Source of the DNA: Patescibacteria group bacterium | GTDB taxonomy: Bacteria > Patescibacteriota > UBA1384 > 2-12-FULL-50-11 | Reading direction: 5' to 3' | Assembly (NCBI GenBank): GCA_016861245.1 | Contig: BOKZ01000001.1 | Location: 188,347-252,346 of the forward strand | DNA length: 64,000 bases | Translations under genes and position numbers: made by a program | The notes under the pieces: generated by a model | Seen by the model: only the letters and a program-made list of their open reading frames with translations | What the model was told of the DNA's origin: nothing | Database searches by the model: none | In this document: positions 11,984 through 59,027 of the stretch, in pieces | How the letters are laid out: every line of letters starts with the position of its first letter | How positions within the stretch are numbered: position 1 is the stretch's first letter

Positions 11984-13111
11984 TCAGTCCTGATGCAAGA
12001 CTTGCCTGTACACATCCTGCGTCATTTTTGCCATCTTTGCCCAAGAGAATTGTTTGAGCCGTTCTAATCCGCGACGCCTCAGCTCTTCGGCAAGTTTCGG
12101 CTGTAACAGTATTCGCTCGATCGCGTTAGCGATCTCCTGTGGTTTATGCGGGTTAATTAGTAAGCCGGCGGTGTCTACTACTTCCGGTAAGCTCGAGATG
12201 TTACTGGTAACGACCGGTACCCCTGAAGCAAACGCTTCGAGAATCATAATACCGAATCCCTCGTACCAACTCGGGTGAACGTACACAGAAGCGGCGCTGT
12301 ACATCGCAGCCAAATCTTCGTCGCTGATAAATCCGGGAGTAATAATATTAAGCCCAGCCGCTTGCTTGTCGTACACAAGCTGCGCCACCTCGGGGCTCTG
12401 ATGCGCCGGCTTACCGCAAATTACTAACGCCAGATTAGGGAACTTCGGTAACAGCGACTCGTAAGCCTCAATTAACGAGACAAGACCTTTATACTTCTCC
12501 CAACGACTCACGAATAACGCGTATCGATCAGGTAGATTATATTTTTGTTTAATCGCCTCGATCTCTTTCTGGGAGTGCAGTCTAAATTTCTTCTCACTAC
12601 CTTCTGGAGTGACAACAATATTTTCCGGCGAAAATTGGAGCATAGAAATAAGGTCTTGTTTGGTCGATTCGCTCGGAACGATAACCTTTTTAGCTCGTTT
12701 TGTATCGTTCATCACCAGTTTGTAGGCAGCCTTACGAATCGTCGAGCGCGTCTGAGCACCAGTTGGGAAGAGGTGCATAATCAGATCATGAATAGTAACG
12801 ACAAACGGTTTCCGGTAGAGAATCGGGTGGTTAAAGTGAGTGAAGTGTACTAAGTCAAAACGTTGCTCGTTAAGAATCTTTGGTAGCGCTTTTTGTTCGG
12901 CAACTGAGTAATGGGGGATATCAACCACCAGCGAACGGCAATTCGGCGCATCAAGCGTAAACTCTTTTTCATCGGCCGGCGTAATAATAACTGTGTACTC
13001 GTTTTCTTGATCGATCTTTAACAGCTCTGTTACCAAATTGCGTGCGTACCGACCGAGCCCGCCAGTTTCAGAGCGCCAAATTCGCGCGTCGATTCCGATT
13101 CTTTTACTCAT
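11984..13111 (-). CDS. glycosyltransferase family 4 (GT-B)
   Basis: EGFGIMILEAFASGVPVVTS nucleotide-sugar binding motif (E-x7-E). Confidence 0.85.
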   Translation of the reverse strand: MSKRIGIDARIWRSETGGLGRYARNLVTELLKIDQENEYTVIITPADEKEFTLDAPNCRSLVVDIPHYSVAEQKALPKILNEQRFDLVHFTHFNHPILYRKPFVVTIHDLIMHLFPTGAQTRSTIRKAAYKLVMNDTKRAKKVIVPSESTKQDLISMLQFSPENIVVTPEGSEKKFRLHSQKEIEAIKQKYNLPDRYALFVSRWEKYKGLVSLIEAYESLLPKFPNLALVICGKPAHQSPEVAQLVYDKQAAGLNIITPGFISDEDLAAMYSAASVYVHPSWYEGFGIMILEAFASGVPVVTSNISSLPEVVDTAGLLINPHKPQEIANAIERILLQPKLAEELRRRGLERLKQFSWAKMAKMTQDVYRQVLHQD

Positions 13112-14304
13112 TAGGTCGAATCATAGCGTCTGCCGCTGCTTTCGCAAATCTGCCACAGAGCTAACGCTAAAAAGAAGATAATCGAGAGATCGTTTTTAAA
13201 ATAGGTACTATCAAATAACCCATGGACCGCTATCGCTGCGACTGCCGCCAAAATCCCAACTCGTATTCGTGAGATATGCGACTCGACAATACCGGTAAAT
13301 AAAACGTGGAGCAGTAATAATACTAATCCGAGTAAGCCCAAAACGCCGGCGGAGAGCCACATCGACAAGTAAAGGTTGTGCGGGTGCAGGGCGTAGGCGC
13401 GAACGTCGCTTTGGTAATAGCTATCTGCGGCCAACTTTTTGTCTAGCTCGGTTTGAAATTGTCCCGGGCCGATCCCAGTTAGTGGTTCGTCAATCACTAC
13501 TTTTGTTGCTTCGCGCCAGATAAAAAGCCGTGCCTGATCACTAGTATTCTGTCGTGGTGCTGAGAGCGAAACAACCGCAACTGCCGCCAACAGGACTGCA
13601 GCCGTTACTAGCACTGCCTTAACACTACGACGCCATAATAAGCTGACTAAGCCAACTGTTAGTAGCGCAACCAAACCCGCTCGAGAGCCCGACAGGTAAA
13701 TCGCTGTTACAGCCGGCGCCGCCAATAAGACCACGACGATGATACTGCGAGTTCGGCTCCAAATATACGCAACACCTATGGCTAAAAGTGGAACAAGATA
13801 CATCGATACGTAGTTTGGCGATTCGAAGAAACCGAGCGCCCTACCCTGCTCGACGTACTGGTTTAAATCGCCCCCACTATTTTGGTGCGCGATCAGCGGC
13901 AGGTAGCCTGCCCACTGTAAAATAGTGTAAAGCGAGACTAGAAATACCGAAAAGATTATCGCCTGGAATAACCAGTGAGCAGACTTTTGGTCGAAAAGTT
14001 TCCAAGCACTCCAGCAAAACATCGCCGGGACGACAAACCAGCCTTTCAAAATTCCTAAGGCTGTGCGCGTATCGTCGGCGACCAGCGTGCCGATCGCGGC
14101 GCCGGATAATAACAACAAAGTGCCGATCACTAGTTGCGTTTTTAACGGCTTTGGCTGCTGCTCGCTAAACAGCGCGGCGACAAATCCTAGCACTATCAAG
14201 AGCTCAACGACATTAGTCGGCAACTCAAGAATCGAAAAACGGACGTAGTACAACGGTAATAGCGCGATCGCAACAACTAGTAGTAATCTTCCAAGCTTAG
14301 TCAT
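13111..14304 (-). CDS. O-antigen ligase/polymerase family membrane protein (Wzy_C)
   Basis: Polytopic; periplasmic-loop motif YALHPHNLYLSMWLSAGVLGLLG; 1-nt overlap with the upstream GT4. Confidence 0.6.
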   Translation of the reverse strand: MTKLGRLLLVVAIALLPLYYVRFSILELPTNVVELLIVLGFVAALFSEQQPKPLKTQLVIGTLLLLSGAAIGTLVADDTRTALGILKGWFVVPAMFCWSAWKLFDQKSAHWLFQAIIFSVFLVSLYTILQWAGYLPLIAHQNSGGDLNQYVEQGRALGFFESPNYVSMYLVPLLAIGVAYIWSRTRSIIVVVLLAAPAVTAIYLSGSRAGLVALLTVGLVSLLWRRSVKAVLVTAAVLLAAVAVVSLSAPRQNTSDQARLFIWREATKVVIDEPLTGIGPGQFQTELDKKLAADSYYQSDVRAYALHPHNLYLSMWLSAGVLGLLGLVLLLLHVLFTGIVESHISRIRVGILAAVAAIAVHGLFDSTYFKNDLSIIFFLALALWQICESSGRRYDST

Positions 14305-15492
14305 TTATTCCAGCATACGCTTTCGTTCTTGAGCGTTCACAGCCGAGGCTAAGAGCGCGAATAGGGTGATGGCGGTCGTTGGGTTATCGGCTAGCGGATG
14401 TAGAAAAAGCGAATTAACGGCAATCGCCACAAATACACTAAGAAGCGCGGTCGAGCCGCTTTGCGACAAGAGTCGAAGCGCCCCAACGATCGCAGCCAAT
14501 AAAGCAAACAGTCCAATTAAACCGATCTCGTGTAATACTTGAAAAAACCAGTTCTCAGGCACGAAGACTTGCTCGGTAACGAACGTCGACGGTCCAGCGG
14601 TCGTGACGCCGTGACCGAATAGTTTTACCGGCACACTGGCGCTAGCAAACTCGTTTATACTTCTTTGAAAAGCGCTAACGCGTTGATCGGTGTGACGACT
14701 ACTAACGAACGTTTGCTGCAGATCATCGGAGTAGCGAAACACTAACGGCAAGACTAACACTAAGCCGACAACCAGCGCCGCGCCAACCATTTTCCATCGA
14801 ATAAGGCTTCGACTCTGGTAAATAAGTACTACAAAACCAGCCAATAGACCGAGTAGGGCGCTTCTCGAAAACGTTCCGATCACCACCAGAGTGGCTGCCG
14901 CTAACCACCAACTGCCGATCTGGCGCTTGGCGTACAGCCAGAGACCCAAGCAGGCAACATACGTTCCTAGCTGGTTTGGCCCGATAAACGAGCCGTACAG
15001 CCGCGGCAAATCGCCGGCTAAATCTCGTTTCGCCAGTACCCAAAAATTGCTTTCAGCCCCAGCAAGCCAGAATACGCCTTGTGCTAGAGCGATAATCACG
15101 ACCAAATAAAATACTGTTTTTAATAGTTTCTTATTCACTTGCCACTGTGCGATCGAGCGAGCGATAAAATAAAAGACAATAAAACCAACGCCGTAACGCA
15201 AACCAATAACGTCGGTCCACCCTGTTGCCGGCGACCAGTACGAGCTGATTGCCGAGAGCGCTAACACCCCGAGCAGGAGCCAGTCAAACCAAAATAACTT
15301 ACGCTTGAGAAACAGTACTACTATGGCCAGTAGCGCTACTATTATTAGCAACTCGTACCAGTTCGTGAGTAAAAACACCGAGCGAGCCGAGGTCTCAAGC
15401 AACTCAAATGGTCGGATCCACAGGTACTGAAACGGTAAAATGAATAACGCTGCGCTAAGGATTAACCCGATAAAGCTGTAGTACCGATTCAT
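14305..15492 (-). CDS. O-antigen ligase/polymerase-like membrane protein (paralog)
   Basis: Polytopic; loop motif FQVLHEIGLIGLFALL; abuts the previous gene. Confidence 0.55.
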   Translation of the reverse strand: MNRYYSFIGLILSAALFILPFQYLWIRPFELLETSARSVFLLTNWYELLIIVALLAIVVLFLKRKLFWFDWLLLGVLALSAISSYWSPATGWTDVIGLRYGVGFIVFYFIARSIAQWQVNKKLLKTVFYLVVIIALAQGVFWLAGAESNFWVLAKRDLAGDLPRLYGSFIGPNQLGTYVACLGLWLYAKRQIGSWWLAAATLVVIGTFSRSALLGLLAGFVVLIYQSRSLIRWKMVGAALVVGLVLVLPLVFRYSDDLQQTFVSSRHTDQRVSAFQRSINEFASASVPVKLFGHGVTTAGPSTFVTEQVFVPENWFFQVLHEIGLIGLFALLAAIVGALRLLSQSGSTALLSVFVAIAVNSLFLHPLADNPTTAITLFALLASAVNAQERKRMLE

Positions 15493-16976
15493 TTAACACT
15501 AAAGATCTGGAAAACTCGCTGGAACGAACCTTTGAATGTTACTAGCAGTGCTAGGAAGAACACTCCGGCCACGGCTGTGAACGCGCCCAAGAGCCAACCG
15601 GCTTGCATCAGCTTGCCAGCGTCGGCGAACGTCTGCGGTTCGATTAACCCAAGCGGCAAGAAGTAAAGAATAATCCAGGTGGCCAGCGCCGCTAGTACCA
15701 CACGGCCGAGTACCGGCCAGTGGATAAAATCTTGGAAGTGTCGGCGACTGGCGCGAAGCGTATAAGCGAGTAGCACGACTTCCGTGATCACTGTTACGGT
15801 CGCCGCGCCGATGTACGAATATCTCGGAATGGCGTACAGGTTTAGGAGCACGTTCACGACAACCGCTAGTAAGTATCCGCGTACTAACACCCCTTGATCG
15901 CGACTTGCGATGATCGCTTGACTCAGAAGTGTTGTAATAAAGACAAAAACGATCGAGAGCATTAGTATTCGTAGCGGTGCGACCGAGAGTAAGAAGTCCG
16001 GCTGCGTTATGAAAACGATCGCCAGCGGCGCGAACGCCACTAGTGCAACAACGAGAAAGGCCGCAATAACAAACAGTATCGAACTAGATCGCTTTAAGAT
16101 CTGGCTAGCATCCTCACGTCGCCCCTCTAACATCACCGCGCTTAGTACTGGCAATAAGTTAGTAGCAAAAATCGACGGGATAACTAACACAACCTCAAGT
16201 AGTTTATAGGCGACGCCGTAGATACCGACGTCGGACTCGCTTTTGAAAAAAGTGAGCAGTAGCATATCGGTCTTGAAATGAACGAGTGCAAGCAAATTAA
16301 TTATCGCGATCGTGCCAAACTGCGGCAGTAGCCGACGCCAGAGCGAGAAGTCTAGTCGGAGCTTAATAGTTACTAAGCGCCGAACCAACAGGAAACTGAC
16401 ACCGAAAATTAAAATCTGGCCGAGCAGGTTTACGATTACCACCGACATCAGCCCGTAGCCCATTTTTAGCACCACGATCGTACCGATAGCGGTAAAAAGT
16501 TTGCCGATAGTTTCCGAGATAACAATTCGGTCTGCCAGTAGATTCGCCTGGAAAACGGTGGCGATAATCTGCGAGCAAAGCATCGAGAACGCGATAAAAA
16601 CGCCGATAATAATGCCTTGTTTGACGATCGCCAAGTACGGCAAGAACTGGTAGAGGATAAGAAAGAGAATTAAGGTAACCGCAAACAAAAGCAACCGAAA
16701 CGCTAAGGCGTTTCCGGCCAACTCGCCGGCCTCACGATGAGTTTTGCCGCTGATTTCTCTAACCAATAATGTGAACAAACCGAAATCCGCGGCCGAACCG
16801 ATAATCGAAACGTAGGTAAAGATAATCGTGTACTGTCCGTACCCGCGTAGCGCCGATCCTTCGACCAATAAGTGGTTAGCGATAAAGTTAACCGTTACCA
16901 GCGTGATCGCCAGACCAAGTAAGCGCCCAGCGATTTGAACGACGGTATTGTACGCGACTTTTGTGGCCAAACTCAT
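15489..16976 (-). CDS. polysaccharide biosynthesis flippase (MOP/Wzx-like)
   Basis: 495 aa, 12-14 TM helices, typical Wzx N-terminus; 4-nt overlap with the downstream ligase-like gene. Confidence 0.7.
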   Translation of the reverse strand: MSLATKVAYNTVVQIAGRLLGLAITLVTVNFIANHLLVEGSALRGYGQYTIIFTYVSIIGSAADFGLFTLLVREISGKTHREAGELAGNALAFRLLLFAVTLILFLILYQFLPYLAIVKQGIIIGVFIAFSMLCSQIIATVFQANLLADRIVISETIGKLFTAIGTIVVLKMGYGLMSVVIVNLLGQILIFGVSFLLVRRLVTIKLRLDFSLWRRLLPQFGTIAIINLLALVHFKTDMLLLTFFKSESDVGIYGVAYKLLEVVLVIPSIFATNLLPVLSAVMLEGRREDASQILKRSSSILFVIAAFLVVALVAFAPLAIVFITQPDFLLSVAPLRILMLSIVFVFITTLLSQAIIASRDQGVLVRGYLLAVVVNVLLNLYAIPRYSYIGAATVTVITEVVLLAYTLRASRRHFQDFIHWPVLGRVVLAALATWIILYFLPLGLIEPQTFADAGKLMQAGWLLGAFTAVAGVFFLALLVTFKGSFQRVFQIFSVK

Positions 16977-17050: not shown

Positions 17051-17136
17051 TAGGGGGATAACTGTCAGATACGATAAGGCTCCAAACAGAGAATAATAAC
17101 GGCTTTCGAAAGCTATTTTTCGTCGTTGTTGCAGCG

Positions 17137-18276
17137 ATGATGGTAACAGGACTCGGGCCGATTCCGAGCGCCAGGGCGATCGATACCAGTCTAACCAGCT
17201 ATCTCAACAATCAATATTACAACCAGCTAGCCCCTGACGGCGATTTTATTAACGTCAACGCGATGTCGGTTGCCGACATCCAAGGTTTCTTAGCTGGAAA
17301 AGGTAGCTACTTAGCAGTCGCGCCTTCGAGCCAGCTCGGTGACGGCGCCGCTGGCCGCTCAGCAGCCCAGATTATCTACGACGCTGCAAAGGGGTTGTAC
17401 GACGCTGCTGTTGGTTGCTCCGGTAGTATCTGTATCAACAGCACCACCGGCACTGTAAGTCCGAAAGCTATTCTTATTACCTTACAAAAAGAGCAGTCGC
17501 TCGTAACCAACGGCGCGCCGAGTCAGCGCGATCTCGACTGCGCGATGGGCTACGAGGGCGGCAACGGTTGTACTTGGATGTTTGAGAACCGACCGCAGTG
17601 GAAAGGCTTCTCAAATCAGGTCGGTTGGGCGGCGTGGAACCTTCGCTTGCACTACGAACGATCGGTTCGTCAGATCGAGCCGTACTACATGGGTAAGGTT
17701 GTAACGGTCACCGACTACGACGGCGCTCGTTCGGTTTATCTTTCTAATCACACGACCGCAGCGTTAATGCGTTACACCCCACACACGTACTACGGTAACT
17801 GGAATTTCTGGAAACTAGGCGTTGAGTGGTTCGGATTCGGCACCGGCGGGAGTTTTGGTGGTGGCGTTAACGATCTGTCCTCAGCTAGCGGACGAATGTA
17901 CGCATCGGGCAAGTACACCGTAAAAAGCTACAAGCAGACCGACGCTCGAGTGTATTTTGGTGATACGATTGTCGCCGAGTTAGGCTCCGGCTCTTGGGAA
18001 TATCAATTCGACCCGGGGATCGGGACTAACACTTACAATTTTACGTACAAACTCGCCGATGGCAGTACGCTCGGGGTTAAATCGATCACGATCGAAAAAC
18101 GCAAGAACGGCGACATCAACGGCGACGGCGGCGTTAACATCTTGGACTTGTCGCTGATCGGTGGGGCGTGGGGATATAAAACCAAAGACGACGACTGGAT
18201 GAATCTTAACCCCGAGGTTGATAACGAAGTAAATCTCTTGGATATCTCCATTTTCGCCAATTCCTGGGAAGGATAA
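17137..18276 (+). CDS. secreted protein with C-terminal dockerin-like tandem Ca-binding repeats
   Basis: C-terminus KNGDINGDGGVNILDLSLIGG ... NPEVDNEVNLLDISIFANSW is two type-I dockerin-like repeats. N-terminus uncertain: upstream in-frame codons encode a hydrophobic signal-like stretch but no ATG. Confidence 0.6.
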   Translation: MMVTGLGPIPSARAIDTSLTSYLNNQYYNQLAPDGDFINVNAMSVADIQGFLAGKGSYLAVAPSSQLGDGAAGRSAAQIIYDAAKGLYDAAVGCSGSICINSTTGTVSPKAILITLQKEQSLVTNGAPSQRDLDCAMGYEGGNGCTWMFENRPQWKGFSNQVGWAAWNLRLHYERSVRQIEPYYMGKVVTVTDYDGARSVYLSNHTTAALMRYTPHTYYGNWNFWKLGVEWFGFGTGGSFGGGVNDLSSASGRMYASGKYTVKSYKQTDARVYFGDTIVAELGSGSWEYQFDPGIGTNTYNFTYKLADGSTLGVKSITIEKRKNGDINGDGGVNILDLSLIGGAWGYKTKDDDWMNLNPEVDNEVNLLDISIFANSWEG

Positions 18277-18293
18277 TGAGGTAAGATAGAAGT

Positions 18294-19550
18294 ATGCTAC
18301 GTCGTTTTTTCCTTTCGCTTTCTATCGTTGTTGGAGTAATTCTTAACCTATTACCGCAAACAGCGCTCGCGGCCGGTAGTATCACGCCGAGCGGCGGCAC
18401 CAGTGTTCAGAACGGGCAGACGTTTACAATTACCGTGCGAGCGAGCGGCGCCACCTTCGATAGTTTGCAAGGCACAATCTCAGTGTCCGGGCCGGTCTCG
18501 ATCGTCTCGTTCTCAGCCGGCGGCGCCACCTGGCTACCAGGTAAGGCTCCAGCCAACAACACGCAGTTTGTTGGGATTGTCTCGCCAACTAGCAACCTAA
18601 CGGTGGCGACGATTAGACTTAAGGGAACCAAAGAAGGCTCGGGCTCGGTTTCTGTTAGCGGCGTCCGGTTAGCTAGATCTGGTGCGGAAGTCGGTAACTC
18701 GGGCGGCAGCACCAAATTTACAATTACACGGGCGCTGGTTGTACCGGGCGCGATCACCGTCAGCTCAGCAACCCACCCAGATCAAGCAATCGCTTACGAG
18801 GCAACTACGATTGATTTGAGTTGGGATAAACCTGCCGGCGTAACTGGTTTCTCTTACCTCTACGATGATATCGCCGATACGACACCGCCAACAACTGTAA
18901 CCTCAGCTGATACAACGAAGCGCTACGAGGGGGCCGCGATCGGTACACATTACTTTCACATTCGAGCACTAAACGCCGACGGCTGGGGACCGACGACCCA
19001 CTTTAAAATAACTATTAAGGAGCCGGACCCGAAAGTCGATGAGACGCTCGCTAAAACCACTCTTAGCTCAGTTCGCTTGGCAGATGTATACACAAATGAT
19101 GTCGAGAACGGCACTGTTGCTGGTGTGGTATTCGAAGGCACGACGGTTGCAGGATTTGCCGCCAACGTCACACTACTACCAATGCCACCGCTGCCAGCTG
19201 AGACGAAGCTAACGAGCGAAATCAGCACGGACGGTGCCTGGCGATTACAGGTTGACGCACCGATTCCAGCTGGGTTTTATACCGTTACCGCTCAGGGACA
19301 GAAAGAAAAAGTATTAACACCAGTGAGCGACAAGATGCGCATTCAAATTAGTGTTGCGGAAGGCGGCGCGATTCGTCTTATTACCAATGCCGATAAAGAA
19401 AAGCCGCCGAAAAATGACACCATCAAAGTTCTCGGCCTAACAGTTAAAAAGAAGACTCTACTTTGGACTGGTCTGGCGCTCGGAAATGTACTACTACTTG
19501 CTGGTGTCGCCTTCGGGACCTACTACTATCTGCGACGTAGGCTTCGCTAA
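18294..19550 (+). CDS. cell-surface protein: signal peptide, cohesin-like beta-sandwich, FN3-like domain, C-terminal TM anchor
   Basis: Signal peptide MLRRFFLSLSIVVGVILNLLPQTALA. N-terminal domain GQTFTITVRASGATFDSLQGTISVSGPVSIVSF resembles a cohesin. FN3-like segment (TIDLSWDKPAG...HYFHIRALNADGWGP). C-terminal hydrophobic helix plus RRRLR. Confidence 0.5.
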   Translation: MLRRFFLSLSIVVGVILNLLPQTALAAGSITPSGGTSVQNGQTFTITVRASGATFDSLQGTISVSGPVSIVSFSAGGATWLPGKAPANNTQFVGIVSPTSNLTVATIRLKGTKEGSGSVSVSGVRLARSGAEVGNSGGSTKFTITRALVVPGAITVSSATHPDQAIAYEATTIDLSWDKPAGVTGFSYLYDDIADTTPPTTVTSADTTKRYEGAAIGTHYFHIRALNADGWGPTTHFKITIKEPDPKVDETLAKTTLSSVRLADVYTNDVENGTVAGVVFEGTTVAGFAANVTLLPMPPLPAETKLTSEISTDGAWRLQVDAPIPAGFYTVTAQGQKEKVLTPVSDKMRIQISVAEGGAIRLITNADKEKPPKNDTIKVLGLTVKKKTLLWTGLALGNVLLLAGVAFGTYYYLRRRLR

Positions 19551-20566
19551 GCAACTTCTTTAGCGTACACGTTCTCGATAAACTTGATCGAGTTGATCGC
19601 GTCTTCCAGCTTTATTCCGTTTCCAGCACCTATCTCCTGATAAAGCGTTGGGTGGTTTGGGCACGAACCGGCGTGAGTTCCGTAAGAGTTCGGCTCGAGT
19701 GACTCGCCGTGGTTTGCAACGAGCTTCTCCCATTTTCTCGTAACTAGATCATTAGAGAACATTACCCTCTCAACTTGGTCAAGCGCTCGGCCACCTATCT
19801 TAATAAAACCCTCTGAGCCTAGCACGGCGATCGAGCACTCTAGGTTTGATGGCTCAGAAGCGATCGTTACTTCCAACGACCCCGACGCACCGTTTGGAAA
19901 TTGTAAAATCCCAAAAACGGTATCTTCAAATGTAACGTGCTTATGTTTGTTGTTAAAACTTGCCGAAGCTTTGACTGTTGGGACGCCGAATAGTAGCTGT
20001 ACGATGTCAAGATAATGAATACCCACTTCATAAAGAGTTCTACCACCAACATTAATATCGGCTCTCCATGACTCGAAGTAGCTCAACGGCCGCTGCCAGC
20101 GCTGGATCAGACTAACCGAACGAATATCACCAAATAACTTTTGGTCTAGTGCTTCCCTAACCATACTGACAGTTGGATTGTAGCGGACCTGTAGCACAGC
20201 ATACGCGTTACGTTGTAGCTTTTTAGCAACATTAGCTATCTCTTGTACTCGGGATTCTATAAAGTCGATCGGTTTTTCCACTAAGATATCGTAGCCAGCC
20301 TGAAGCGAGTCGATTGCCTGTTGATAGTGAAGGCTGTTTGGAGTCGCAATCGTAACCATAGTCATCTTCCCCTTCATCTTTTGCAACATTTCTTTGTAGT
20401 CGGTAAAGCCGGGAACTTGGTACTCTTTCGACCTATGCTCAGTCTTTTTTGGATCAATGTCGCATAGTGCCACTAGTTCAAAATGGTCGCTATTGGCATG
20501 AATGGCCTCAAGGTGACGATCAAATATCATTCCGCAACCGATAATGCCAACTTTGTATTTAGCCAT
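19547..20566 (-). CDS. Gfo/Idh/MocA-family NAD-dependent oxidoreductase (WbpB-like sugar 3-dehydrogenase candidate)
   Basis: N-terminal Rossmann MAKYKVGIIGCGMIFDRHLEAI; family-typical length. Confidence 0.85.
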   Translation of the reverse strand: MAKYKVGIIGCGMIFDRHLEAIHANSDHFELVALCDIDPKKTEHRSKEYQVPGFTDYKEMLQKMKGKMTMVTIATPNSLHYQQAIDSLQAGYDILVEKPIDFIESRVQEIANVAKKLQRNAYAVLQVRYNPTVSMVREALDQKLFGDIRSVSLIQRWQRPLSYFESWRADINVGGRTLYEVGIHYLDIVQLLFGVPTVKASASFNNKHKHVTFEDTVFGILQFPNGASGSLEVTIASEPSNLECSIAVLGSEGFIKIGGRALDQVERVMFSNDLVTRKWEKLVANHGESLEPNSYGTHAGSCPNHPTLYQEIGAGNGIKLEDAINSIKFIENVYAKEVA

Positions 20567-21766: not shown

Positions 21767-22858
21767 ATGAAAACTTACGACTTCATCGTCATTGGCGCAG
21801 GTGTAGTTGGTTGCGCTATCGCAAGAGAGCTCTCGAGTCACGGATCAGTACTGGTTCTAGAACGACGAGAGCGCCCGGGGATGGAAACGAGTCGGTATAA
21901 TAGCGGCGTCATCCACTCAGGCATCCATTTACCACCGAGCTTTCTCAAGGCACGGTTAGCGCGTGAGGGGAGCGCGCTAGTTCGAGAATTTTGTCAGCAA
22001 TTCAACGTCCCAAATCGAGAGGTTGGAATGCATATCGTCGTCACTGCGCAAGATTGCTTCACACAGGTAGGGCAGCTCAAACAATTCACCAAGCTACTAC
22101 AGCGCGCACGTGAACAAGACATTCGCATAGAAGTAAAAAGTGGCCGAGCGATACGTACCGTTGAACCATCTGTACGCTGCTTGCTCGGTGTCCACGTGCC
22201 AGGTGTTCGCATCATCGACCAGTGCGCCTTCCTGGCCGCCTTAATCGATGACATGGGAAATAGCAGCACAACTATAGACTGCTGTATGGAGGTAACTGCG
22301 ATCGAGCCGGTTAATTCAGGCTTAGTAGTTACTGCTGGCTCCTCGCGGTTCCGGGCGAGTCTCGTTATCAACGCCGCAGGTTTATACGCCGACCAAGTCG
22401 CTCGACTCGCTGATGTGCAATTCCAGCACTACTACTATCGTGGCGAATACTACGAAATCGAGCCATCGGCAGGAATTACGGCAAACGGTCTCGTCTATCC
22501 GCTCCCACCCAGGCACAGTAAGGGGCTTGGCATTCATCTCACACCCACAACCGATGGTCGAATCTTACTCGGGCCGAACACAAAACGCGTCTCAGGCCCC
22601 GACGACTACAGGTCGGACAAAACACCTCCAGAAAAGTTCCTTAGCGCGGTTCGGGCTTTCCTTCCGAGCCTAACAACTGCGGATATTTCTTGGGCGTTTT
22701 CAGGAATCCGACCGAAGACCACCGACGAATCGATCGAGAGCGATTTTGTCATCGAAAAACACCCGGAATTACCGCTAATAAACCTGATCGGGATCGAGTC
22801 CCCGGGTCTCACCGCGTCGCTGGCAGTTGGGAATTACGTTAGTCAACAACTTTCCTAG
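21767..22858 (+). CDS. FAD-dependent oxidoreductase (DAO family)
   Basis: Dinucleotide-binding motif at the N-terminus (MKTYDFIVIGAGVVGCAIA). Listed ORF starts at 21716, but the Rossmann motif favours ATG 21767. Confidence 0.75.
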   Translation: MKTYDFIVIGAGVVGCAIARELSSHGSVLVLERRERPGMETSRYNSGVIHSGIHLPPSFLKARLAREGSALVREFCQQFNVPNREVGMHIVVTAQDCFTQVGQLKQFTKLLQRAREQDIRIEVKSGRAIRTVEPSVRCLLGVHVPGVRIIDQCAFLAALIDDMGNSSTTIDCCMEVTAIEPVNSGLVVTAGSSRFRASLVINAAGLYADQVARLADVQFQHYYYRGEYYEIEPSAGITANGLVYPLPPRHSKGLGIHLTPTTDGRILLGPNTKRVSGPDDYRSDKTPPEKFLSAVRAFLPSLTTADISWAFSGIRPKTTDESIESDFVIEKHPELPLINLIGIESPGLTASLAVGNYVSQQLS

Positions 22859-24989
22859 GAGAAATCCTAGGACTTTTTAATAAACCGAATAATAGCAACG
22901 CGAGCGCTAAAGCCGAGAGAAGCATTCCGACTAAGTAGTAGTTTTGTGGTTGATAATAAATAGACAAGCTAACTGTTATAGTTCCATCTGGATTGCTGCG
23001 CACAGACCCCGGGGAACGACTCCGTATAAGCTCAGGATCAACTTCCCAGCGATTGCCAAAATCCTTGTAGATTGTGTGTGACTGCTCAAAAAAGCTTGGC
23101 TGCTTGAATTCCGGCCATGTTATTAGTCGATTACTGCTAGCACATTCAGTTATCTCCTGATTTACGCTAACAACTTCGCACGAAATTGCCGTACCCGAAC
23201 CAATCTTCCAACCATAGTGGAACGACTCTAAGAAATTTAGACTAAACTTTGTATAGTCACGGATAGTAACATCGACTCGATACAGTGTTTCGCTCTCCTT
23301 TACGAACATTAAAGTCGGCCCCGTTATCCTACTCTCCGCGCCAACGACTCTATAAATATTTGGAGAAACTTGGGCTAACCCATCAGGGTTAGCTTTAACA
23401 ACTTTAGCTATAAAGTCTTTATCGGTGTGAATTAGACTAACATCATTTCCATAAACCGCCGGGTCAGAAAATTTATCAAAGTTTGAGGCGTAAACACTTG
23501 ATAAATCAAGAATATAGCCAACATTCTTTTGTCGTAGTAGCTCAAGATCGTAGCGCTCCAAGAACTTTCGCTGCAACGAGTCTTGAAAGTCTATTGGAGA
23601 GACAGAATTCTGAATATAACCACTGCCAGAAAATATACTAAAACTATCCCAGCCACTATTGGAAAGCGGGGTGTTATTAATTACTCGTACTGGTTGATCA
23701 ATAAGTGAATATTGATTAAAAAACGGGTAAACCAAAACACGGCTACTATCCTCCTTTTGTTGCAGAAAATCTTCGTAGCTCTGGAGACTTGCTCTAGCGT
23801 CTGAAAAACTCACTTTCGGCAACCCCCGTAGGAATAGCGGGTAGCTAAGTGCTAGATAACTGAATAGTAGAATTGTTACAAGTGTACGACGGGTAGCCCA
23901 AAGTCCTACTATTGCTAATAGTAGGAATACGACTAGCAGCGGTGCTGCGTGACCAGCTTCTCGAAGCATTGGGTAGAAGTAGGAGATAACAGGTATAGGG
24001 ATTGAAGCGTAGTAACCGCTAGTAAGTATGACAAATGAGAAAAGGCCAATTAAAAAGTAAAGTACTATTTTTCTTTCAGTGTAAGTTCTCTTGAATACTC
24101 CCCAAATAACTAAAGTGAAGAATAAAATACCAAAGAGCGCTGATGGAGCACCAAAGAATTTATCGATAAAAGTAGCTGGAGAGAACCATAGAGTAAAAAT
24201 TCTTAAAAAATTCGTCCGACCTAAATCAGTGAATGAGTTTACGGCTGCATTTGACCGCAACGAATCAACGGAATTCGCCCCAAAGAGTATTGGGAGCAAC
24301 CAATAACAGTTAAGTAACAGCATTGCTCCGAAAGCAGATAGGATGATCTTTAAACGATCTCGGGTGTAGTTTAAAAACAACCAGATCAATAAAGTAAGTG
24401 GTGTAAAAATAAAAAATTGTATTTGTACTGTTGTCAGCCAAGCCAGAAGCATCAAACCAACTACTGTTCTCGTTGAGAAGACTTTTGTACTCAAGAGAAG
24501 ACTTACTAGCCATAAATAAGCTGAGTAGGAGAAGATATAACCCCAATGCCCTGCTAAAAACTTATAAAAAATTGCGGGATTAAAGATAAAGAGCAGGCTT
24601 ACAAGCACTGCAATCAAGCGCTGAGCCGGGAATAGTTTTGAAATTATTAGTCTCCCAGCAAGATAGATTGAAATAAAGAATAAAAGATGGATTACTATTT
24701 GCGTTAGCTCGGGGGTAACTGTTAATCGACTAATAAGATAGGTAAGTAATGGAAAAGGTGTAGAGCTGGCGTAACCAAGTGGCGCGCCCAGGCCAGCGTA
24801 CTGCCAGGCTGAGAGTTCCAGCTTTGGGAAAGTGGAGAAATGCCTAGAGAAATACGGAAAAGTTCCGTCCCAATTATTACCGATGCCACCCCAGGCAACT
24901 AATACGTATCCAATTAGTAAACTTGCGACGAAAATTAACTCAAGTACATTGTGGCGGACAGACAACCAGTTTTTAAGCTTAGTTATCAT
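22839..24989 (-). CDS. large polytopic membrane protein with C-terminal soluble domain (GT-C-like glycosyltransferase candidate)
   Basis: 716 aa; about 12 N-terminal TM helices then a roughly 300-aa hydrophilic domain; layout like ArnT/PMT/YfhO-type enzymes; no firm motif. Confidence 0.4.
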   Translation of the reverse strand: MITKLKNWLSVRHNVLELIFVASLLIGYVLVAWGGIGNNWDGTFPYFSRHFSTFPKLELSAWQYAGLGAPLGYASSTPFPLLTYLISRLTVTPELTQIVIHLLFFISIYLAGRLIISKLFPAQRLIAVLVSLLFIFNPAIFYKFLAGHWGYIFSYSAYLWLVSLLLSTKVFSTRTVVGLMLLAWLTTVQIQFFIFTPLTLLIWLFLNYTRDRLKIILSAFGAMLLLNCYWLLPILFGANSVDSLRSNAAVNSFTDLGRTNFLRIFTLWFSPATFIDKFFGAPSALFGILFFTLVIWGVFKRTYTERKIVLYFLIGLFSFVILTSGYYASIPIPVISYFYPMLREAGHAAPLLVVFLLLAIVGLWATRRTLVTILLFSYLALSYPLFLRGLPKVSFSDARASLQSYEDFLQQKEDSSRVLVYPFFNQYSLIDQPVRVINNTPLSNSGWDSFSIFSGSGYIQNSVSPIDFQDSLQRKFLERYDLELLRQKNVGYILDLSSVYASNFDKFSDPAVYGNDVSLIHTDKDFIAKVVKANPDGLAQVSPNIYRVVGAESRITGPTLMFVKESETLYRVDVTIRDYTKFSLNFLESFHYGWKIGSGTAISCEVVSVNQEITECASSNRLITWPEFKQPSFFEQSHTIYKDFGNRWEVDPELIRSRSPGSVRSNPDGTITVSLSIYYQPQNYYLVGMLLSALALALLLFGLLKSPRISPRKVVD

Positions 24990-25326
24990 CCGTTAAGCTG
25001 GATTCTGTTGTCATCTTAAACGAGTGATAGACATGCAGAACGATAGTAACTGCAAATAGAATGAATACAATTTTTGCTGCTTGTTCAGCTCGATCGGTCC
25101 TATTAATTGCCAGTAGCAGCGCTACACCGATTAAGCCCCAAACAGTCCCTAACGCAAACAATTTGGGCTGTGGCACTTCAACAACTAGCCAAACCAGGAA
25201 GACTAGCGCTACTACATCGCGTACTCTCCAGTTAAGATACATCGCCAAAAAGCCGAAAGCCCCGACAATAATATACGAACGATATCGAATAATATATGAA
25301 GTTATGTTTTTATATAAATCCGTCAT
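24979..25326 (-). CDS. small membrane protein
   Basis: 115 aa, three hydrophobic helices; overlaps both neighbours by a few nt (operon coupling). Confidence 0.35.
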   Translation of the reverse strand: MTDLYKNITSYIIRYRSYIIVGAFGFLAMYLNWRVRDVVALVFLVWLVVEVPQPKLFALGTVWGLIGVALLLAINRTDRAEQAAKIVFILFAVTIVLHVYHSFKMTTESSLTDDN

Positions 25327-26702
25327 TTCTTCAGTAGCTGTCCAGAGACCTTTAAAGACCGGAGACCAAAGTAAGGATAAGCTGTGTAACCCAACTCCTT
25401 GTTTGACACCCTAATATAAACGGTGTGAGAGTCATTATTATTGTCGGCTGAGCCAGAATACTGACCAGCGCCCAACTGCGAGTTCTCGTTAATGACGAAC
25501 CATTCTTGACCATCAAAGGACATCTCAAGCAGAACATCGTTGTACTCAGAGTAGAGACGACTAGCTTGCATCGAAGCTGATAGCACTGGCGACGACAATT
25601 CGCAAACAAAGGTAAAGGAAGCACCAATTGACTTGTTCATGATTAGCGACTTTTCTGAGTAGCTATACCTGGCAACAGCATCACCAGAAGTATCCAAGAT
25701 CATTAGACGATCCGTTGGCTCTCCGGAGGTGCTGCACGAGTATTGTTCTCGTGTTAAACTAATTTGATCAAGATATGTGCCTATAGAAATTAGTGACTGT
25801 TTAGGTCGGGATAGTCGCAACGAAACGCCCTCAATTGAATTCACAGTAGTACCATCGACTTTCACTCTAGAAGCCGCCAAGATACCGTTTATAAAAATGT
25901 GACTCATTCTGGTGGGACGAGACTGGGCTGGGGTAATAACAACGATATACTCCTGAGCGTTTTTAACTCTGCTAGCAAGTGGTAGATATATCCAACCATC
26001 TTTAATAGCACTCACACCAGTGAATTCGACTGTAGAAATGGCTTTCTCTGACGATAGTACCTCTAGTTTTTTTTCATAGAGACTTGCCTCATACCTCCCA
26101 CCGCCATTACCAATGTAGCCGCCTTTAACTGAGATAGATTGAAGCTTGTCAGTCTTGGGGGTAATAGAGAAAAAAACGGGAGAAAATATCGATACTTCTC
26201 TATCAACTTTTGGATCATTTTCAAGATAAACTTCTTGACTGTAAGGGCTGGCATAATCCGAGCTACCACCAGGAACATCTAGCCCAATCAGCCTGACTTG
26301 ATCGATAAATACTTTTGCACGGAGCTGGGGGTTTTTTTTGGCGACTACTATTGAGTCAACCGTTTTCCCATTTAGTTCGAAGTTCTTATAGAAGTATTGA
26401 GGTTCACCGGGGTGGACCGTAAAACTACCGATTAGCAGCGAGTCCGATCCAACAGTGTGAGTAATTAATTGCATCTCAACTAACTCAGTGCTCTCTGTTT
26501 TTGCAATAAAAGCAACTCGATATGAGCCATCACCAAGATTTGTATGGCTAATGATCTCAAGTGATGCGTTCGATTCTCCAAGTTCATAACTAAAGCTATT
26601 CTCTTTTATTTCTTCAAATGCGTTCGGACGTGCACCGAAAACGAGTAACAAAATGAAAAGCAGGGAAAGAAACCAGTACCGATTAGGTGTTAGTTGAAGC
26701 AT
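25323..26702 (-). CDS. secreted/anchored hypothetical protein
   Basis: Start reassigned to MLQLTPNRYWFLSLLFILLLVFGARP (ATG 26702) with a perfect AAGGAG RBS 6-7 nt upstream; beta-rich, no catalytic motif. Confidence 0.45.
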   Translation of the reverse strand: MLQLTPNRYWFLSLLFILLLVFGARPNAFEEIKENSFSYELGESNASLEIISHTNLGDGSYRVAFIAKTESTELVEMQLITHTVGSDSLLIGSFTVHPGEPQYFYKNFELNGKTVDSIVVAKKNPQLRAKVFIDQVRLIGLDVPGGSSDYASPYSQEVYLENDPKVDREVSIFSPVFFSITPKTDKLQSISVKGGYIGNGGGRYEASLYEKKLEVLSSEKAISTVEFTGVSAIKDGWIYLPLASRVKNAQEYIVVITPAQSRPTRMSHIFINGILAASRVKVDGTTVNSIEGVSLRLSRPKQSLISIGTYLDQISLTREQYSCSTSGEPTDRLMILDTSGDAVARYSYSEKSLIMNKSIGASFTFVCELSSPVLSASMQASRLYSEYNDVLLEMSFDGQEWFVINENSQLGAGQYSGSADNNNDSHTVYIRVSNKELGYTAYPYFGLRSLKVSGQLLKK

Positions 26703-28923
26703 AGCGACTCCTTCGATTATATCCGATCCACCAGATAACCATAAGCACGAATAGGAACCCAAACGAGATTATCTGACTGATTGCTGTCAGGATTTGTGGG
26801 TAAAAAGTAATCATAAATGAGTACTGTTCACCTGGTTTAAGACTGGGTTGGCTTATTAGCCAAGCACTTTCCTGTTTTCCCTCGACGGATGAGTTCAGCG
26901 AGCGAAGGCGAAGGCTAGAAGAAATACTTGTTGGGTTATAAAAACAATTTGAATTTCCAAATGAATCGGCACAATTCCCTGGCCTGATGAATAATCGATA
27001 GTTTTCTGAGACGGGTTCGTTCAGGGTAATACTAAGCGGTTGCTCTGTAGCAATAAACTCTCCACTCAATCGCCCTGGCGCGACTTCCCTAAAGGTGACA
27101 GAGTCACTCTCCGCACCGGTAATTTGTAAATAGTTTTGCTGCCAACCAGGTACTTCATAGACACTAATATCCCCAAACTCTTTAACTAACTTATAACCTT
27201 TACGTAATTCTTTATCTAAGCTTGTAACACTAGCTTCAGAAGCCGAAAAATAAACATCACTCAATTGAGTAAGCGGCCAGTTAATATCTTTGTGTAGCAA
27301 CACATATCGTACATTCGATCGTTTCAACTGTTCCATATTAAGGCTGGTAAACGGTTTGCCCGAGCTATCACTAGATTGTCCGGTAATAAAACGTTTGTCG
27401 GTCATTAGCATCAACGGATAAGTCCCCCAGTAACCGTCACTGCCAGATTGCCAGCGTAAAGAGGCTAGGCTTGTGTTTATAATCGGTAACGGTAAGACAA
27501 AAAAATGATCTGGCTGTTCGTTCAGCCAGGCGGCAAGCTGGGTATAGGAATCAGGTACTTTAACTTTTCTGGAGGGAATAACGTCGTTCCTGGCCGGAAA
27601 CACCTGATCCTTCCAAAATGGGGACGAATAAGTGAAAAGGTAAATGATGACTATTACCAGGACACCGCCAGTCTTAGCATATTTGGGCAACGTCGAGCTT
27701 GGGATTAATGAAACAACATAACCAAACAAAACTCCTACGGAGAGTAAGGTTAAAGGCATAAATCTTTGCCAAATTGACCTAAACACCTCACCGATCGCTG
27801 GAAGAGAATAGAAGTAGTTATTAATACTTTTCATTGGCGAGTAATCACCTAGAGTTAGCTGACCAAAAACCAGCAAAAGCACAAAGAAGAAGATTATATT
27901 TGGCGTGAGACGACGGCGTAGCATTAGCCAGCAAACCGTCGCAAATACGCTGACCCCGATAATTGAGGTGGCTGTGGCAGCGTATGTGCTAAACCATAAG
28001 TGATAGGGCTGACCACCAACTTTATCTCCCAAGAAATCTGGCCCAAGTAATTTAAAGTATTCAAGTGGGCGAGTAGAGTTAAACTTTAATAACGCTTCTG
28101 TAGTAATATCGCTGACAGCGCGACGCGACAACTCCCCGCCCACAAACAGTAGCTGTGGTAGTAGCCAAAAAAGATTAACAACAAGCCAAAAAACGCCCGT
28201 TAATCCGGTAAGAAGAAGAGCCCGATATCTTCGCTGTCTTGACTTCGTCCCAATTATCAAAAAGATGGCCAGATAAATGAATAAAACTCCCCAGGTAATT
28301 AGCATGAACGGCGGCGTAACATAGCTTGGAGTTAAAAGCAGTGACCAGGCTAGCGTAATAGTTACTGCGGACATAATAATTGGTTTGGTAGAGTGCAAGC
28401 GATTAATAAATAAGCCTAAAATTAATGGGAAGAAAGCGAAAAAAAACAGTATCCAAGAGAGCGCACTTAGCGCCACAACAGCGTAGACGTTTGTTGAATA
28501 GAGTAACCCAGAAACTACCGCTCCTGCTTTGGCCTTCTCCGGAAAGCACTGCCTAAATAAATAGTAAGTCGACAAACCGGCTCCGACGATAATCGTGTAG
28601 AGAAGGCACTTTTGGACAGCGGCAACCGACAAAACTAAGCCAATTTTTTGTAGAGCTAATAATAACAATCCAAACGGCAATAAAAAGGGGAACTTACTTG
28701 CATCCGGTGTACTCAACGCAATCTTCCCAGAAACTAGATGAAAATAGTCTGCCAAATAAACCTGTTGGTTAATGCCGAAAGAGGCGTCGTCACCCCAAAT
28801 GAATCCGTTAGCGGGGAACCAGGAAAATGCCACTAAACCTAATACTAGAAACACCAACCATGGCCTGGGAGAGATAAACGAGATTAAGCGACGAAATATA
28901 TTCCTACCAGCGCTTACCAGCAT
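26683..28923 (-). CDS. large polytopic membrane protein with C-terminal soluble domain (GT-C-like glycosyltransferase candidate)
   Basis: 746 aa; first extracytoplasmic loop carries WGDD (GT-C DD/DE-like motif); more than 12 TM helices then a roughly 330-aa domain. Confidence 0.45.
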   Translation of the reverse strand: MLVSAGRNIFRRLISFISPRPWLVFLVLGLVAFSWFPANGFIWGDDASFGINQQVYLADYFHLVSGKIALSTPDASKFPFLLPFGLLLLALQKIGLVLSVAAVQKCLLYTIIVGAGLSTYYLFRQCFPEKAKAGAVVSGLLYSTNVYAVVALSALSWILFFFAFFPLILGLFINRLHSTKPIIMSAVTITLAWSLLLTPSYVTPPFMLITWGVLFIYLAIFLIIGTKSRQRRYRALLLTGLTGVFWLVVNLFWLLPQLLFVGGELSRRAVSDITTEALLKFNSTRPLEYFKLLGPDFLGDKVGGQPYHLWFSTYAATATSIIGVSVFATVCWLMLRRRLTPNIIFFFVLLLVFGQLTLGDYSPMKSINNYFYSLPAIGEVFRSIWQRFMPLTLLSVGVLFGYVVSLIPSSTLPKYAKTGGVLVIVIIYLFTYSSPFWKDQVFPARNDVIPSRKVKVPDSYTQLAAWLNEQPDHFFVLPLPIINTSLASLRWQSGSDGYWGTYPLMLMTDKRFITGQSSDSSGKPFTSLNMEQLKRSNVRYVLLHKDINWPLTQLSDVYFSASEASVTSLDKELRKGYKLVKEFGDISVYEVPGWQQNYLQITGAESDSVTFREVAPGRLSGEFIATEQPLSITLNEPVSENYRLFIRPGNCADSFGNSNCFYNPTSISSSLRLRSLNSSVEGKQESAWLISQPSLKPGEQYSFMITFYPQILTAISQIISFGFLFVLMVIWWIGYNRRSRYASTNT

Positions 28924-30016
28924 ATGCCTTCATTTCACGAATAATATTCTGGCTTATGTCGGGTGCGTCGTAAGGGTTGCCAACTTCTACATATTTCTTC
29001 TGAAGCTCGTCGTAGTTATCCATAATATAATTCAGCTTGTCCTTAATTTCAGATTCATCACATTTTGCTAGAAAACTAACACCGTATTCAATTGGCTCTA
29101 GCCAAGCGGTATGGTCACGTAGAATTACACACGGCTTCTTGCTCCAGAATGCCTCTTTTTGTAGTCCACCTGAATCAGTAACAACGAGCTTAGAGTGCTC
29201 AACAAGCGCTACAATCTCTCGGTAGCTGAGTGAACGAATAAACTTAATATTTGAGCCGTCTTTTATAACATTTAGCTCGTCCATCCTTGCTTTCGTGCGC
29301 GGGTGGACTGGGAAGACAAATTGTAGATCCGGATAGTGCCCCACCGCACTAACTAGGGCTTGAAGTGACTCCTTAGTATCGACGTTCTTAGCGCGATGAG
29401 CCGTTAAAACAGCATACTCTCCCTCTTTAACATCAAACTCCTCTAAGATTTTCTTTTCCTCCGTCATATTTTTCGTACACCACTCATAAACTTCAAACAG
29501 TGGGTCGCCGACAAACTTAATATCACCAGCAACATGTTCTTTCTCAAGGTTCTTTGAAGAAATATCCGAAACCGTTAGCATTACATTTGAACAATGGTCT
29601 AGTAGCCGACGATTTATCTCTTCCGGCATATCCATCTCCCACTCGCGACAACCTGCCTCAATATGAGCCAACGGAATATTCATCTTTACAGCGGTAATAC
29701 CGGCTGCGAGTGAGGAGTTTGTATCTCCAAAGACTCCGACCATATCTGGTTTAAACTCTTCAAAATACTTCTCGAGCCTTAAGATAATATTAGCCGTCTG
29801 TTCGCCATGAGTTCCAGATCCAACGTTAAGATTAATGTCTGGCTCTGGCAAACCAAGGTCTTCAAAGAATATTTTATTCATTTCGTAATCGTAATGTTGG
29901 CCGGTATGAACTAACTTAAAATCGATATCGGGATCAGATTTAAAGGCAGGTATTAGCGTTGCCGAACGGATGATTTCTGGCCTTGTACCGATTATGTAGA
30001 CAATTTTTTTCTTCAT
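28904..30016 (-). CDS. wecB: UDP-N-acetylglucosamine 2-epimerase (non-hydrolysing)
   Basis: N-terminal KIVYIIGTRPEIIR (GTRPE motif); 370 aa. Confidence 0.9.
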   Translation of the reverse strand: MKKKIVYIIGTRPEIIRSATLIPAFKSDPDIDFKLVHTGQHYDYEMNKIFFEDLGLPEPDINLNVGSGTHGEQTANIILRLEKYFEEFKPDMVGVFGDTNSSLAAGITAVKMNIPLAHIEAGCREWEMDMPEEINRRLLDHCSNVMLTVSDISSKNLEKEHVAGDIKFVGDPLFEVYEWCTKNMTEEKKILEEFDVKEGEYAVLTAHRAKNVDTKESLQALVSAVGHYPDLQFVFPVHPRTKARMDELNVIKDGSNIKFIRSLSYREIVALVEHSKLVVTDSGGLQKEAFWSKKPCVILRDHTAWLEPIEYGVSFLAKCDESEIKDKLNYIMDNYDELQKKYVEVGNPYDAPDISQNIIREMKAYAGKRW

Positions 30017-33066: not shown

Positions 33067-33071
33067 GAAGC

Positions 33072-59025: not shown

Positions 59026-59027
59026 TT

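Follow-up and report, generated by a model that had tools for sequence, protein, structure and literature searches.

Does a dockerin-bearing protein find its binding partner in the product of the gene immediately downstream? This question is raised by two adjacent genes, ORF1 and ORF2 (ORF, open reading frame), located at positions 17,137 to 19,550 of a 64,000-nucleotide stretch (hereafter the window) of contig BOKZ01000001.1, from assembly GCA_016861245.1 of a Berkelbacteria-like member of the Patescibacteria. The original prediction proposed that both genes constitute a minimal non-cellulosomal cohesin-dockerin pair for surface display, and this proposal is supported by predicted fold, profile-level homology, synteny, co-variation and topology. 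In the reading that we regard as probable, the two genes make up a non-cellulosomal cohesin-dockerin module that tethers a wall hydrolase at the cell surface. The physical binding between both proteins, as well as its calcium dependence, is suggested indirectly by their synteny and co-variation.

The ORF1 dockerin and the putative ORF2 cohesin

The C-terminal end of ORF1 reads ...GDINGDGGVNILDLSLIGGAWG...NLNPEVDNEVNLLDISIFANSWEG and contains two predicted calcium-binding repeats. The first, D326-I-N328-G-D330-G-G-V-N334-I-L-D337, displays the canonical Asp or Asn residues at loop positions 1, 3, 5, 9 and 12, and the second, N356-L-N358-[P-E]-V-D362-N-E-V-N366-L-L-D369, retains its Asp/Asn ligands; the calcium-coordinating residues are kept in both loops, each of which is followed by an (L/I)S(L/I)(I/F) helix motif. 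Dockerin_1 (PF00404) is the sole Pfam family matched by ORF1 over a plausible extent. The same model is matched by 50 of the 58 members of the ORF1 family (E<=0.01; best 1.3e-10), and syntenic relatives reach scores of 29-34 bits. Likewise, the ORF1 family profile recovers solved dockerins among PDB sequences, namely 2y3n_B (1.2e-5), 4fl4_A (2.7e-5), 2jnk (8e-4), which is the NagH dockerin of Clostridium perfringens, and 5nrk_B (1.1e-3). Judged from its sequence, the C-terminal dockerin of ORF1 is real and lies beyond chance.

The identity of the N-terminal domain of ORF2 is less apparent from routine annotation. Searches of ORF2 with Pfam and NCBIfam returned sub-threshold Ig-like noise and no Cohesin, and phmmer and profile hmmsearch runs against PDB sequences found no cohesin. 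An exhaustive phmmer search with the cohesin domain over 1.84 billion representatives yielded 39 matches only, none of them bridging to a Pfam cohesin. In the predicted structure, the domain is a nine-stranded beta-jelly-roll that can be superposed on solved cohesins. In addition, a profile of the Berkelbacteria N-terminal domain aligns in hhalign to the cohesin profile of a Patescibacteria family with a Prob of 94.9% (E 4.3e-8, 108 columns). This bridging family comprises 64 members, about half of them with PF00963 and some of them named 'cohesin domain-containing protein' by NCBI, and its member at locus L041 scores 27.6 bits against a Pfam gathering threshold of 24.1 for Cohesin. As controls for these alignments, FN3 against FN3 gave 99.9%, and cross-domain negatives gave 0.2-0.3%. 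Fold and profile comparison together indicate that the N-terminal domain of ORF2 is a real but cryptic, highly divergent cohesin. The cohesin-like beta-sandwich of approximately 140 amino acids (aa) that had been proposed is thus upheld as a sandwich and as a cohesin, and its size is corrected to about 125 aa (aa 27-150).

Two further matches of this region deserve mention. PDB matches to nanobody/VH framework 1, involving the signal peptide of ORF2 and the 'SGG.SVQ.G....ASG.TF' stretch, were rejected as chance. Such weak matches occur repeatedly over aa 1-59 (18294-18470), comprising the signal peptide and 'SGGTSVQNGQTFTITVRASGATF', and could mislead annotation. Four giant proteins (P0249, P0254, P0258 and P0270; 2308-3648 aa) contain 12-16 repeats each, which match only the first half (residues 3-60, approximately) of the ORF2 cohesin domain.

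Conservation, predicted export and anchoring of the pair

ORF1 and ORF2 each belong to large, well-conserved families, whose source organisms, where named, are Candidatus Berkelbacteria, Patescibacteria or generically labelled relatives; contig JAJTYJ010000001.1, with 98-100% identity, comes from the same species. Conservation was assessed in 42 loci from species-representative genomes, 40 of which encode an ORF2-type cohesin. In all 40 of them, the cohesin gene is preceded, on its own strand, by a dockerin ORF detected by hidden Markov model (HMM), at a distance of about 50 nt or less in most loci and never above approximately 550 nt. With whole ORF1 as a tblastn query, the gene is present in 37 of 39 loci. 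The upstream protein combines a lysozyme-like domain, a beta-module and a dockerin in 28 loci, is devoid of the beta-module in 6, is cut by contig ends in 2 and carries other cargo in 4 (L010, L031, L040 and L027). At L010, two genes with Peptidase_C39_2 and He_PIG repeats, whose dockerins are 65% identical to each other, precede one cohesin gene, the upstream proteins of L031 and L040 reach about 1000 aa, and the cargo of L027 is unassigned. Because the adjacency persists despite this replacement of the cargo, the constant feature is the dockerin beside the cohesin, and not the enzyme. One genome, CAZZBO01, harbors two pairs, between which both modules have diverged (45% and 44% identity). 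At L024 (7968-9307), the cohesin gene is broken into two ORFs that overlap, which points either to a frameshift (pseudogene) or to an assembly error.

Consistent with a partnership between the two modules, their sequences co-vary. In Mantel tests on distances across 37 loci, the correlation between dockerin and cohesin (r 0.48) exceeds that between the cohesin and the rest of its own polypeptide (r 0.26). The former persists as a partial correlation of 0.41 when the rest of ORF2 is controlled for and of 0.37 when the lysozyme domain is controlled for (p<=5e-4). Conversely, controlling for the dockerin lowers the correlation between the lysozyme domain and the cohesin to a non-significant 0.08. 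This co-variation is supportive of the pair.

The topology of ORF2 is that expected from the original prediction, in which its signal peptide, FN3-like domain, C-terminal transmembrane (TM) anchor with RRRLR and exact placement 17 nt (18277-18293) downstream of ORF1 had all been described correctly; the gene lies on the + strand. The signal peptide, supported by sequence and hydropathy and modelled by AlphaFold2 (AF2) as a helix over residues 2-19, would be cleaved between MLRRFFLSLSIVVGVILNLLPQTALA and AG. The AF2 model then continues with an N-terminal sandwich of about 125 aa, the FN3 domain, two more beta-sandwiches and a C-terminal helix, with the cohesin at the membrane-distal tip. The FN3 assignment is borne out by both sequence and fold, with a match to FN3con (4u3h, E 1.9e-5) in the PDB sequence search and fn3 found by Pfam in 37 of 56 family members; the TM anchor and its RRRLR tail are recognized by sequence, AF2 and hydropathy. 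The two additional beta-sandwich domains (aa 250-385, approximately) had been overlooked before. ORF2 would therefore be exported and retained by its TM helix, leaving the RRRLR tail on the cytoplasmic side, and would project a single cohesin on a stalk of three beta-sandwiches (FN3 plus two Ig-like domains). Its stop overlaps by 4 nt the end of a convergent GFO/IDH/MocA oxidoreductase gene (19547-20566, - strand). No terminator-like site rises above background between the two genes, and a promoter and terminator scan around the gene pair revealed nothing exceeding shuffled expectation.

In the case of ORF1, likewise on the + strand, the gene was located correctly, but probably not its start, the ATG at 17137, from which the signal peptide is truncated to MMVTGLGPIPSARA before the mature protein. 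Upstream of this ATG, 25 in-frame codons beginning at CTG 17062 supply the missing n- and h-regions: they translate to LSDTIRLQTENNNGFRKLFFVVVAA, which can be aligned to the signal peptides of the homologues P0122 and P0123, and a hydrophobic segment is visible solely when this extension is included. CTG 17062 lies directly 3' of a TAA and the AGGGGGA motif. The corresponding position is also CTG in the same-species contig, and in a 93%-identical relative (L044) it is occupied by a GTG preceded by AGGAGG. Since the upstream codons encode n- and h-regions, and given the CTG of the same species and the GTG of L044, initiation at CTG 17062 appears likely. For P0121, the protein of the same species, gene callers choose the downstream ATG and thereby truncate its signal peptide. 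In the proposed mechanism, ORF1 would be Sec-secreted, probably from CTG 17062, and its calcium-binding dockerin, preceded by a small beta-module, would dock onto the ORF2 cohesin, so that the lysozyme-like (GH73-like) domain would be held at a fixed distance from the membrane. The coordinates of all these features are collected in Table 1.

Table 1. Features of the gene pair and of the upstream glycan genes (positions in the window)
Feature	Positions	Strand	Basis or remark
Shine-Dalgarno-like AGGGGGA, 5' of probable true ORF1 start	17052..17058	+	Read from sequence
ORF1 probable signal peptide, CTG 17062 to ...PSARA cleavage motif	17062..17178	+	Homologue alignment, hydropathy
ORF1 (379 aa, called from first ATG)	17137..18276	+	Lysozyme-like domain, beta-sandwich module, dockerin
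Predicted lysozyme-like (GH73-like) alpha-domain, aa ~15-235	17179..17841	+	Invariant E119, candidate catalytic acid
Beta-sandwich (Ig/FN3-like) module just 5' of dockerin, aa ~245-322	17869..18102	+	
Dockerin, aa 323-379	18103..18273	+	Pfam, family profile; Ca loop 1 18112-18147, Ca loop 2 18202-18243
ORF2 (418 aa), predicted type I membrane protein carrying the putative cohesin	18294..19550	+	AF2 pLDDT 89.6
ORF2 signal peptide, aa 1-26, cleaved between ALA and A	18294..18371	+	Sequence, hydropathy; cleavage site judged by eye
Putative cohesin module, aa 27-150	18372..18743	+	
FN3 domain, aa ~155-243	18756..19022	+	PDB match, Pfam in family, hhalign
Two further beta-sandwich stalk domains, aa ~250-385	19041..19448	+	AF2 secondary structure, pLDDT
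C-terminal TM helix, aa ~389-413, and cytoplasmic RRRLR tail	19458..19547	+	Sequence, AF2, hydropathy
GT4 glycosyltransferase, two Wzy_C-type proteins, Wzx/MOP-family flippase; divergent from the pair	11984..16976	-	Pfam

Several observations weigh against a tethered pair. On the dockerin side, the window protein scores 17.9 bits (E 0.0035) against Dockerin_1, below the gathering score of 22.9. Moreover, the loop of repeat 2 contains a 2-residue insertion (P359-E360) with respect to the canonical 12-residue loop. Both repeats are present with their ligands, as had been claimed, but because of this insertion the second is not quite the textbook repeat of the original prediction; the canonical form of the loop is kept by solved dockerins and by remoter members of the family (DMNGDGIVDILD). 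On the cohesin side, ORF2 has no match to Pfam Cohesin (PF00963) at E<=1, and Cohesin is outside the 25 most-matched of the 54 Pfam families reported for 56 ORF2-family members. Alignments to single cohesins were not significant either, whether the ORF2 domain profile was aligned to the CipA cohesin 1aoh by hhalign or the ORF2 cohesin domain was compared with those of L041 and L042 by BLASTP and hhalign, and the tblastn match of ORF2 to L041 is carried by its FN3. The proposed check by HMM and fold thus failed in its first part and was borne out in the second, where the predicted fold is joined by profile-level homology. As for co-variation, Mantel tests overstate significance for phylogenetically related sequences. 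With regard to export, ORF1 in this species is devoid of a canonical start codon that would preserve its signal peptide, and translation from ATG 17137 would leave the protein non-exported. Finally, at least one related genome has further cohesins elsewhere, and the partner of ORF1 therefore need not be exclusive.

Some of these points would fit a different scenario, in which ORF1 and ORF2 are neighbours in an envelope operon that do not bind each other, the N-terminal domain of ORF2 being a glycan- or host-binding sandwich and the dockerin either binding a different partner, for instance a cohesin encoded elsewhere in the genome, or merely stabilizing ORF1 via calcium. The absence of Pfam Cohesin from ORF2 agrees with it, jelly-roll sandwiches also serve as carbohydrate-binding modules (CBMs), and, in a related near-complete genome, three more cohesin genes are clustered apart from the pair, together with a further gene for a dockerin protein. 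This scenario is very improbable. A cellulosome, which would involve a multi-cohesin scaffoldin and a CBM, was rejected: a single cohesin and a single dockerin exist within the window, the cargo is lysozyme-like rather than a cellulase, and no CBM appeared in family searches of the window proteins and of the ORF2 family members.

Predicted cargo, its target and known systems

The AF2 model of ORF1 (pLDDT, the per-residue confidence, 92.3; pTM, the global confidence, 0.89) is composed of an alpha-rich domain (residues 15-235, approximately), a small beta-sandwich (about 245-322) and the dockerin. Its aa 1-240 are without a sequence match in Pfam, NCBIfam or the PDB. The modelled cargo domain shows a lysozyme-like alpha+beta fold, whose best structural matches are the self-directed autolysins LytB and Acp, with phage lysins, lytic transglycosylases and g-type lysozyme also among the matches. 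Within the ORF1 family, E119 is invariant and located at a helix end, in an equally invariant LQKEQSL motif, which makes it a plausible catalytic acid of the predicted hydrolase. The cargo would accordingly represent a GH73-like glycan hydrolase, an activity suggested by the model.

Two targets in particular can be envisaged for such an enzyme, the remaining probability falling to others. One of them is the organism's own wall or envelope glycan, upon which ORF1 would act as a tethered autolysin, either in remodelling or in the separation of cells. We favor this option, albeit tentatively and at slightly less than even chances, because of the housekeeping context of the pair, its near-universal conservation and the resemblance to LytB and Acp. 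The other is the wall of a host cell at the site of epibiotic contact, a less probable target that must nevertheless be taken seriously, since cultivated Patescibacteria live as epibionts and the cargo is swapped. In this version, the same tethered complex would work as an offensive or contact device and not in self-wall remodelling: the cohesin stalk would present a lysin, or in relatives peptidases or adhesin-like proteins, with which the growing epibiont would breach or grip the wall of its bacterial host. Cultivated members of the Patescibacteria are epibionts, and the saccharibacterium Southlakia possesses an essential dockerin-domain protein, SEML1_0315, for which its authors speculate on host-glycan targeting (PMC10633639). 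The position of the cohesin at the membrane-distal tip, and the exchange of the cargo for Peptidase_C39_2/Ig-repeat or ~1000-aa proteins, as expected of a display platform, are also compatible with a contact device. Against it, the pair is near-universal in related loci, usually single per locus and surrounded by housekeeping envelope-glycan genes, the closest structural matches are to self-directed autolysins, the stalk, with its three small domains, may be too short to extend past the organism's own wall, and no host-recognition domain is evident. A contact device is hence unlikely, and the self-directed autolysin is retained as the preferred function of the tethered hydrolase.

Non-cellulosomal cohesin-dockerin modules are already known, and databases already list some cohesins from Patescibacteria as such. 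Such pairs are widely predicted, and their function is rarely understood. In the toxin complexes of C. perfringens (NagJ/GH84C Coh-FN3, 2w1n; NanJ/GH33 cohesin, 2vo8; NagH dockerin, 2jnk/2ozn), cohesin and dockerin are carried by large secreted enzymes that bind each other, whereas here the putative cohesin resides on an enzyme-free TM-anchored stalk, is encoded in a conserved adjacent gene pair and goes unreported by Pfam. The single-cohesin anchors of C. thermocellum (OlpA, 3ul4; OlpC, 4dh2) rely on SLH domains for attachment to the wall of a cellulolytic Firmicute and serve a large repertoire of cellulosomal dockerins; the present system differs in its C-terminal TM anchor, its lysozyme-like cargo and its essentially one-to-one relationship. 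The non-cellulosomal cohesin of Archaeoglobus fulgidus (2xdh) is archaeal. Finally, surface-tethered GH73 autolysins such as LytB of Streptococcus pneumoniae (7pj3) and Acp of C. perfringens (5wqw) lack detectable sequence similarity to ORF1, and are tethered by repeats that bind wall polymers (choline-binding in LytB) and not by a cohesin-dockerin lock. What distinguishes the pair is therefore the combination of a Pfam-unreported cohesin, a dedicated TM-anchored stalk, a lysozyme-like cargo and a lineage-wide one-to-one gene arrangement. A literature search on Berkelbacteria, the candidate phyla radiation (CPR) and Patescibacteria combined with dockerin or cohesin found no description of the pair, of any other cohesin-dockerin system in Berkelbacteria or the CPR, or of either type of cassette described below.

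Envelope-glycan neighbourhood and related cassettes

As had been proposed, the pair sits between two glycan clusters, and Pfam identifies glycan genes on both sides. The upstream set is listed in Table 1; downstream, the oxidoreductase gene is accompanied by a DegT aminotransferase, both of them sugar-modifying. Similar envelope-glycan genes flank the pair in L001, L047 and many other loci, and the flanking gene types recur both in an 804-kb contig and in a Berkelbacteria genome that is complete at 768 kb. At L047, the gene for the dockerin protein is preceded, at a distance of about 0.7 kb, by an Amidase_2 gene. P0267, a distant relative of 1042 aa, joins its cohesin-FN3 ectodomain to a PMT_2 (GT-C glycosyltransferase) membrane domain instead of the single TM helix, a fusion that ties the cohesin anchor to the envelope glycosylation machinery.

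Other regions of the window present features of their own. Three large ORFs (716, 479 and 746 aa) without Pfam match occupy the sugar-gene region at 22839-28923 on the minus strand; the 716-aa product looks polytopic, and the three may encode uncharacterised glycan-assembly membrane proteins. The G+C content drops to 0.41-0.43 across 24000-34000 of the glycan cluster, versus approximately 0.50 around the pair, and this segment may represent a variable or acquired glycan island. Further away, the minus strand at 53423-61649 carries a block that resembles a type IV secretion or conjugation-like module equipped with a wall hydrolase of its own: it encodes a protein of 1429 aa without Pfam match, one of 437 aa whose C-terminal domain is NlpC/P60, and a TraG/VirB4-like P-loop ATPase of 873 aa.

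Related cassettes are found in Kerfeldbacteria- and Parcubacteria-type genomes (L041, L042, L045 and L046), which share with the pair the order of a dockerin protein followed by a cohesin-FN3-TM protein. Their FN3 domains are homologous to that of ORF2 (hhalign 99.9%), and so are the cohesins at the profile level (94.9%). By contrast, their cohesins are detectable by Pfam and their dockerin proteins contain only Ig-like domains and no enzyme. They also include extra genes, namely a WxLIP_PGBD-type protein (Pfam) at L045 and, at L041, L042 and L046, a second cohesin on a multi-TM CarboxypepD_reg protein. The four-gene cassettes of Kerfeldbacteria-type Patescibacteria (L041, 2347-7820; L042, 5574-11154; L046, 4101-9539) thus comprise a signal peptide/TM surface protein, an Ig-domain dockerin protein without enzyme, a cohesin-FN3-TM protein, and a protein with cohesin-FN3 and a multi-TM region bearing CarboxypepD_reg domains; that of L046 adjoins resolvase and integrase genes. 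L045 (1965-7443) and L047 (3827-6350) belong to the same 803,959-bp contig, Ga0131077_10000003, a near-complete genome that combines an ORF2-type pair (L047) with a separate cluster of WxLIP_PGBD, dockerin and three cohesin proteins (L045). Cross-binding between the two systems is possible.

Taken as a whole, the ORF1-ORF2 pair would represent a clean, minimal, one-to-one system, kept across a CPR lineage, whose cohesin is missed by routine annotation. This provides a reason to seek cryptic cohesins beside unexplained dockerin proteins in other Patescibacteria, and offers a compact natural display module, of which the diverged paralogous pairs could be orthogonal. A broader view, which we put forward as speculative and hold with low confidence, is that dockerin-then-cohesin cassettes constitute a general envelope-assembly system of Patescibacteria, with many cohesins invisible to standard domain models, and that in Berkelbacteria this system positions the principal wall glycosidase, required for division or for penetration of the host wall. 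If true, it would explain 'orphan' dockerin proteins such as SEML1_0315. The pair provides a testable hypothesis on how ultra-small, genome-reduced bacteria may control or deploy their wall-cutting enzymes.

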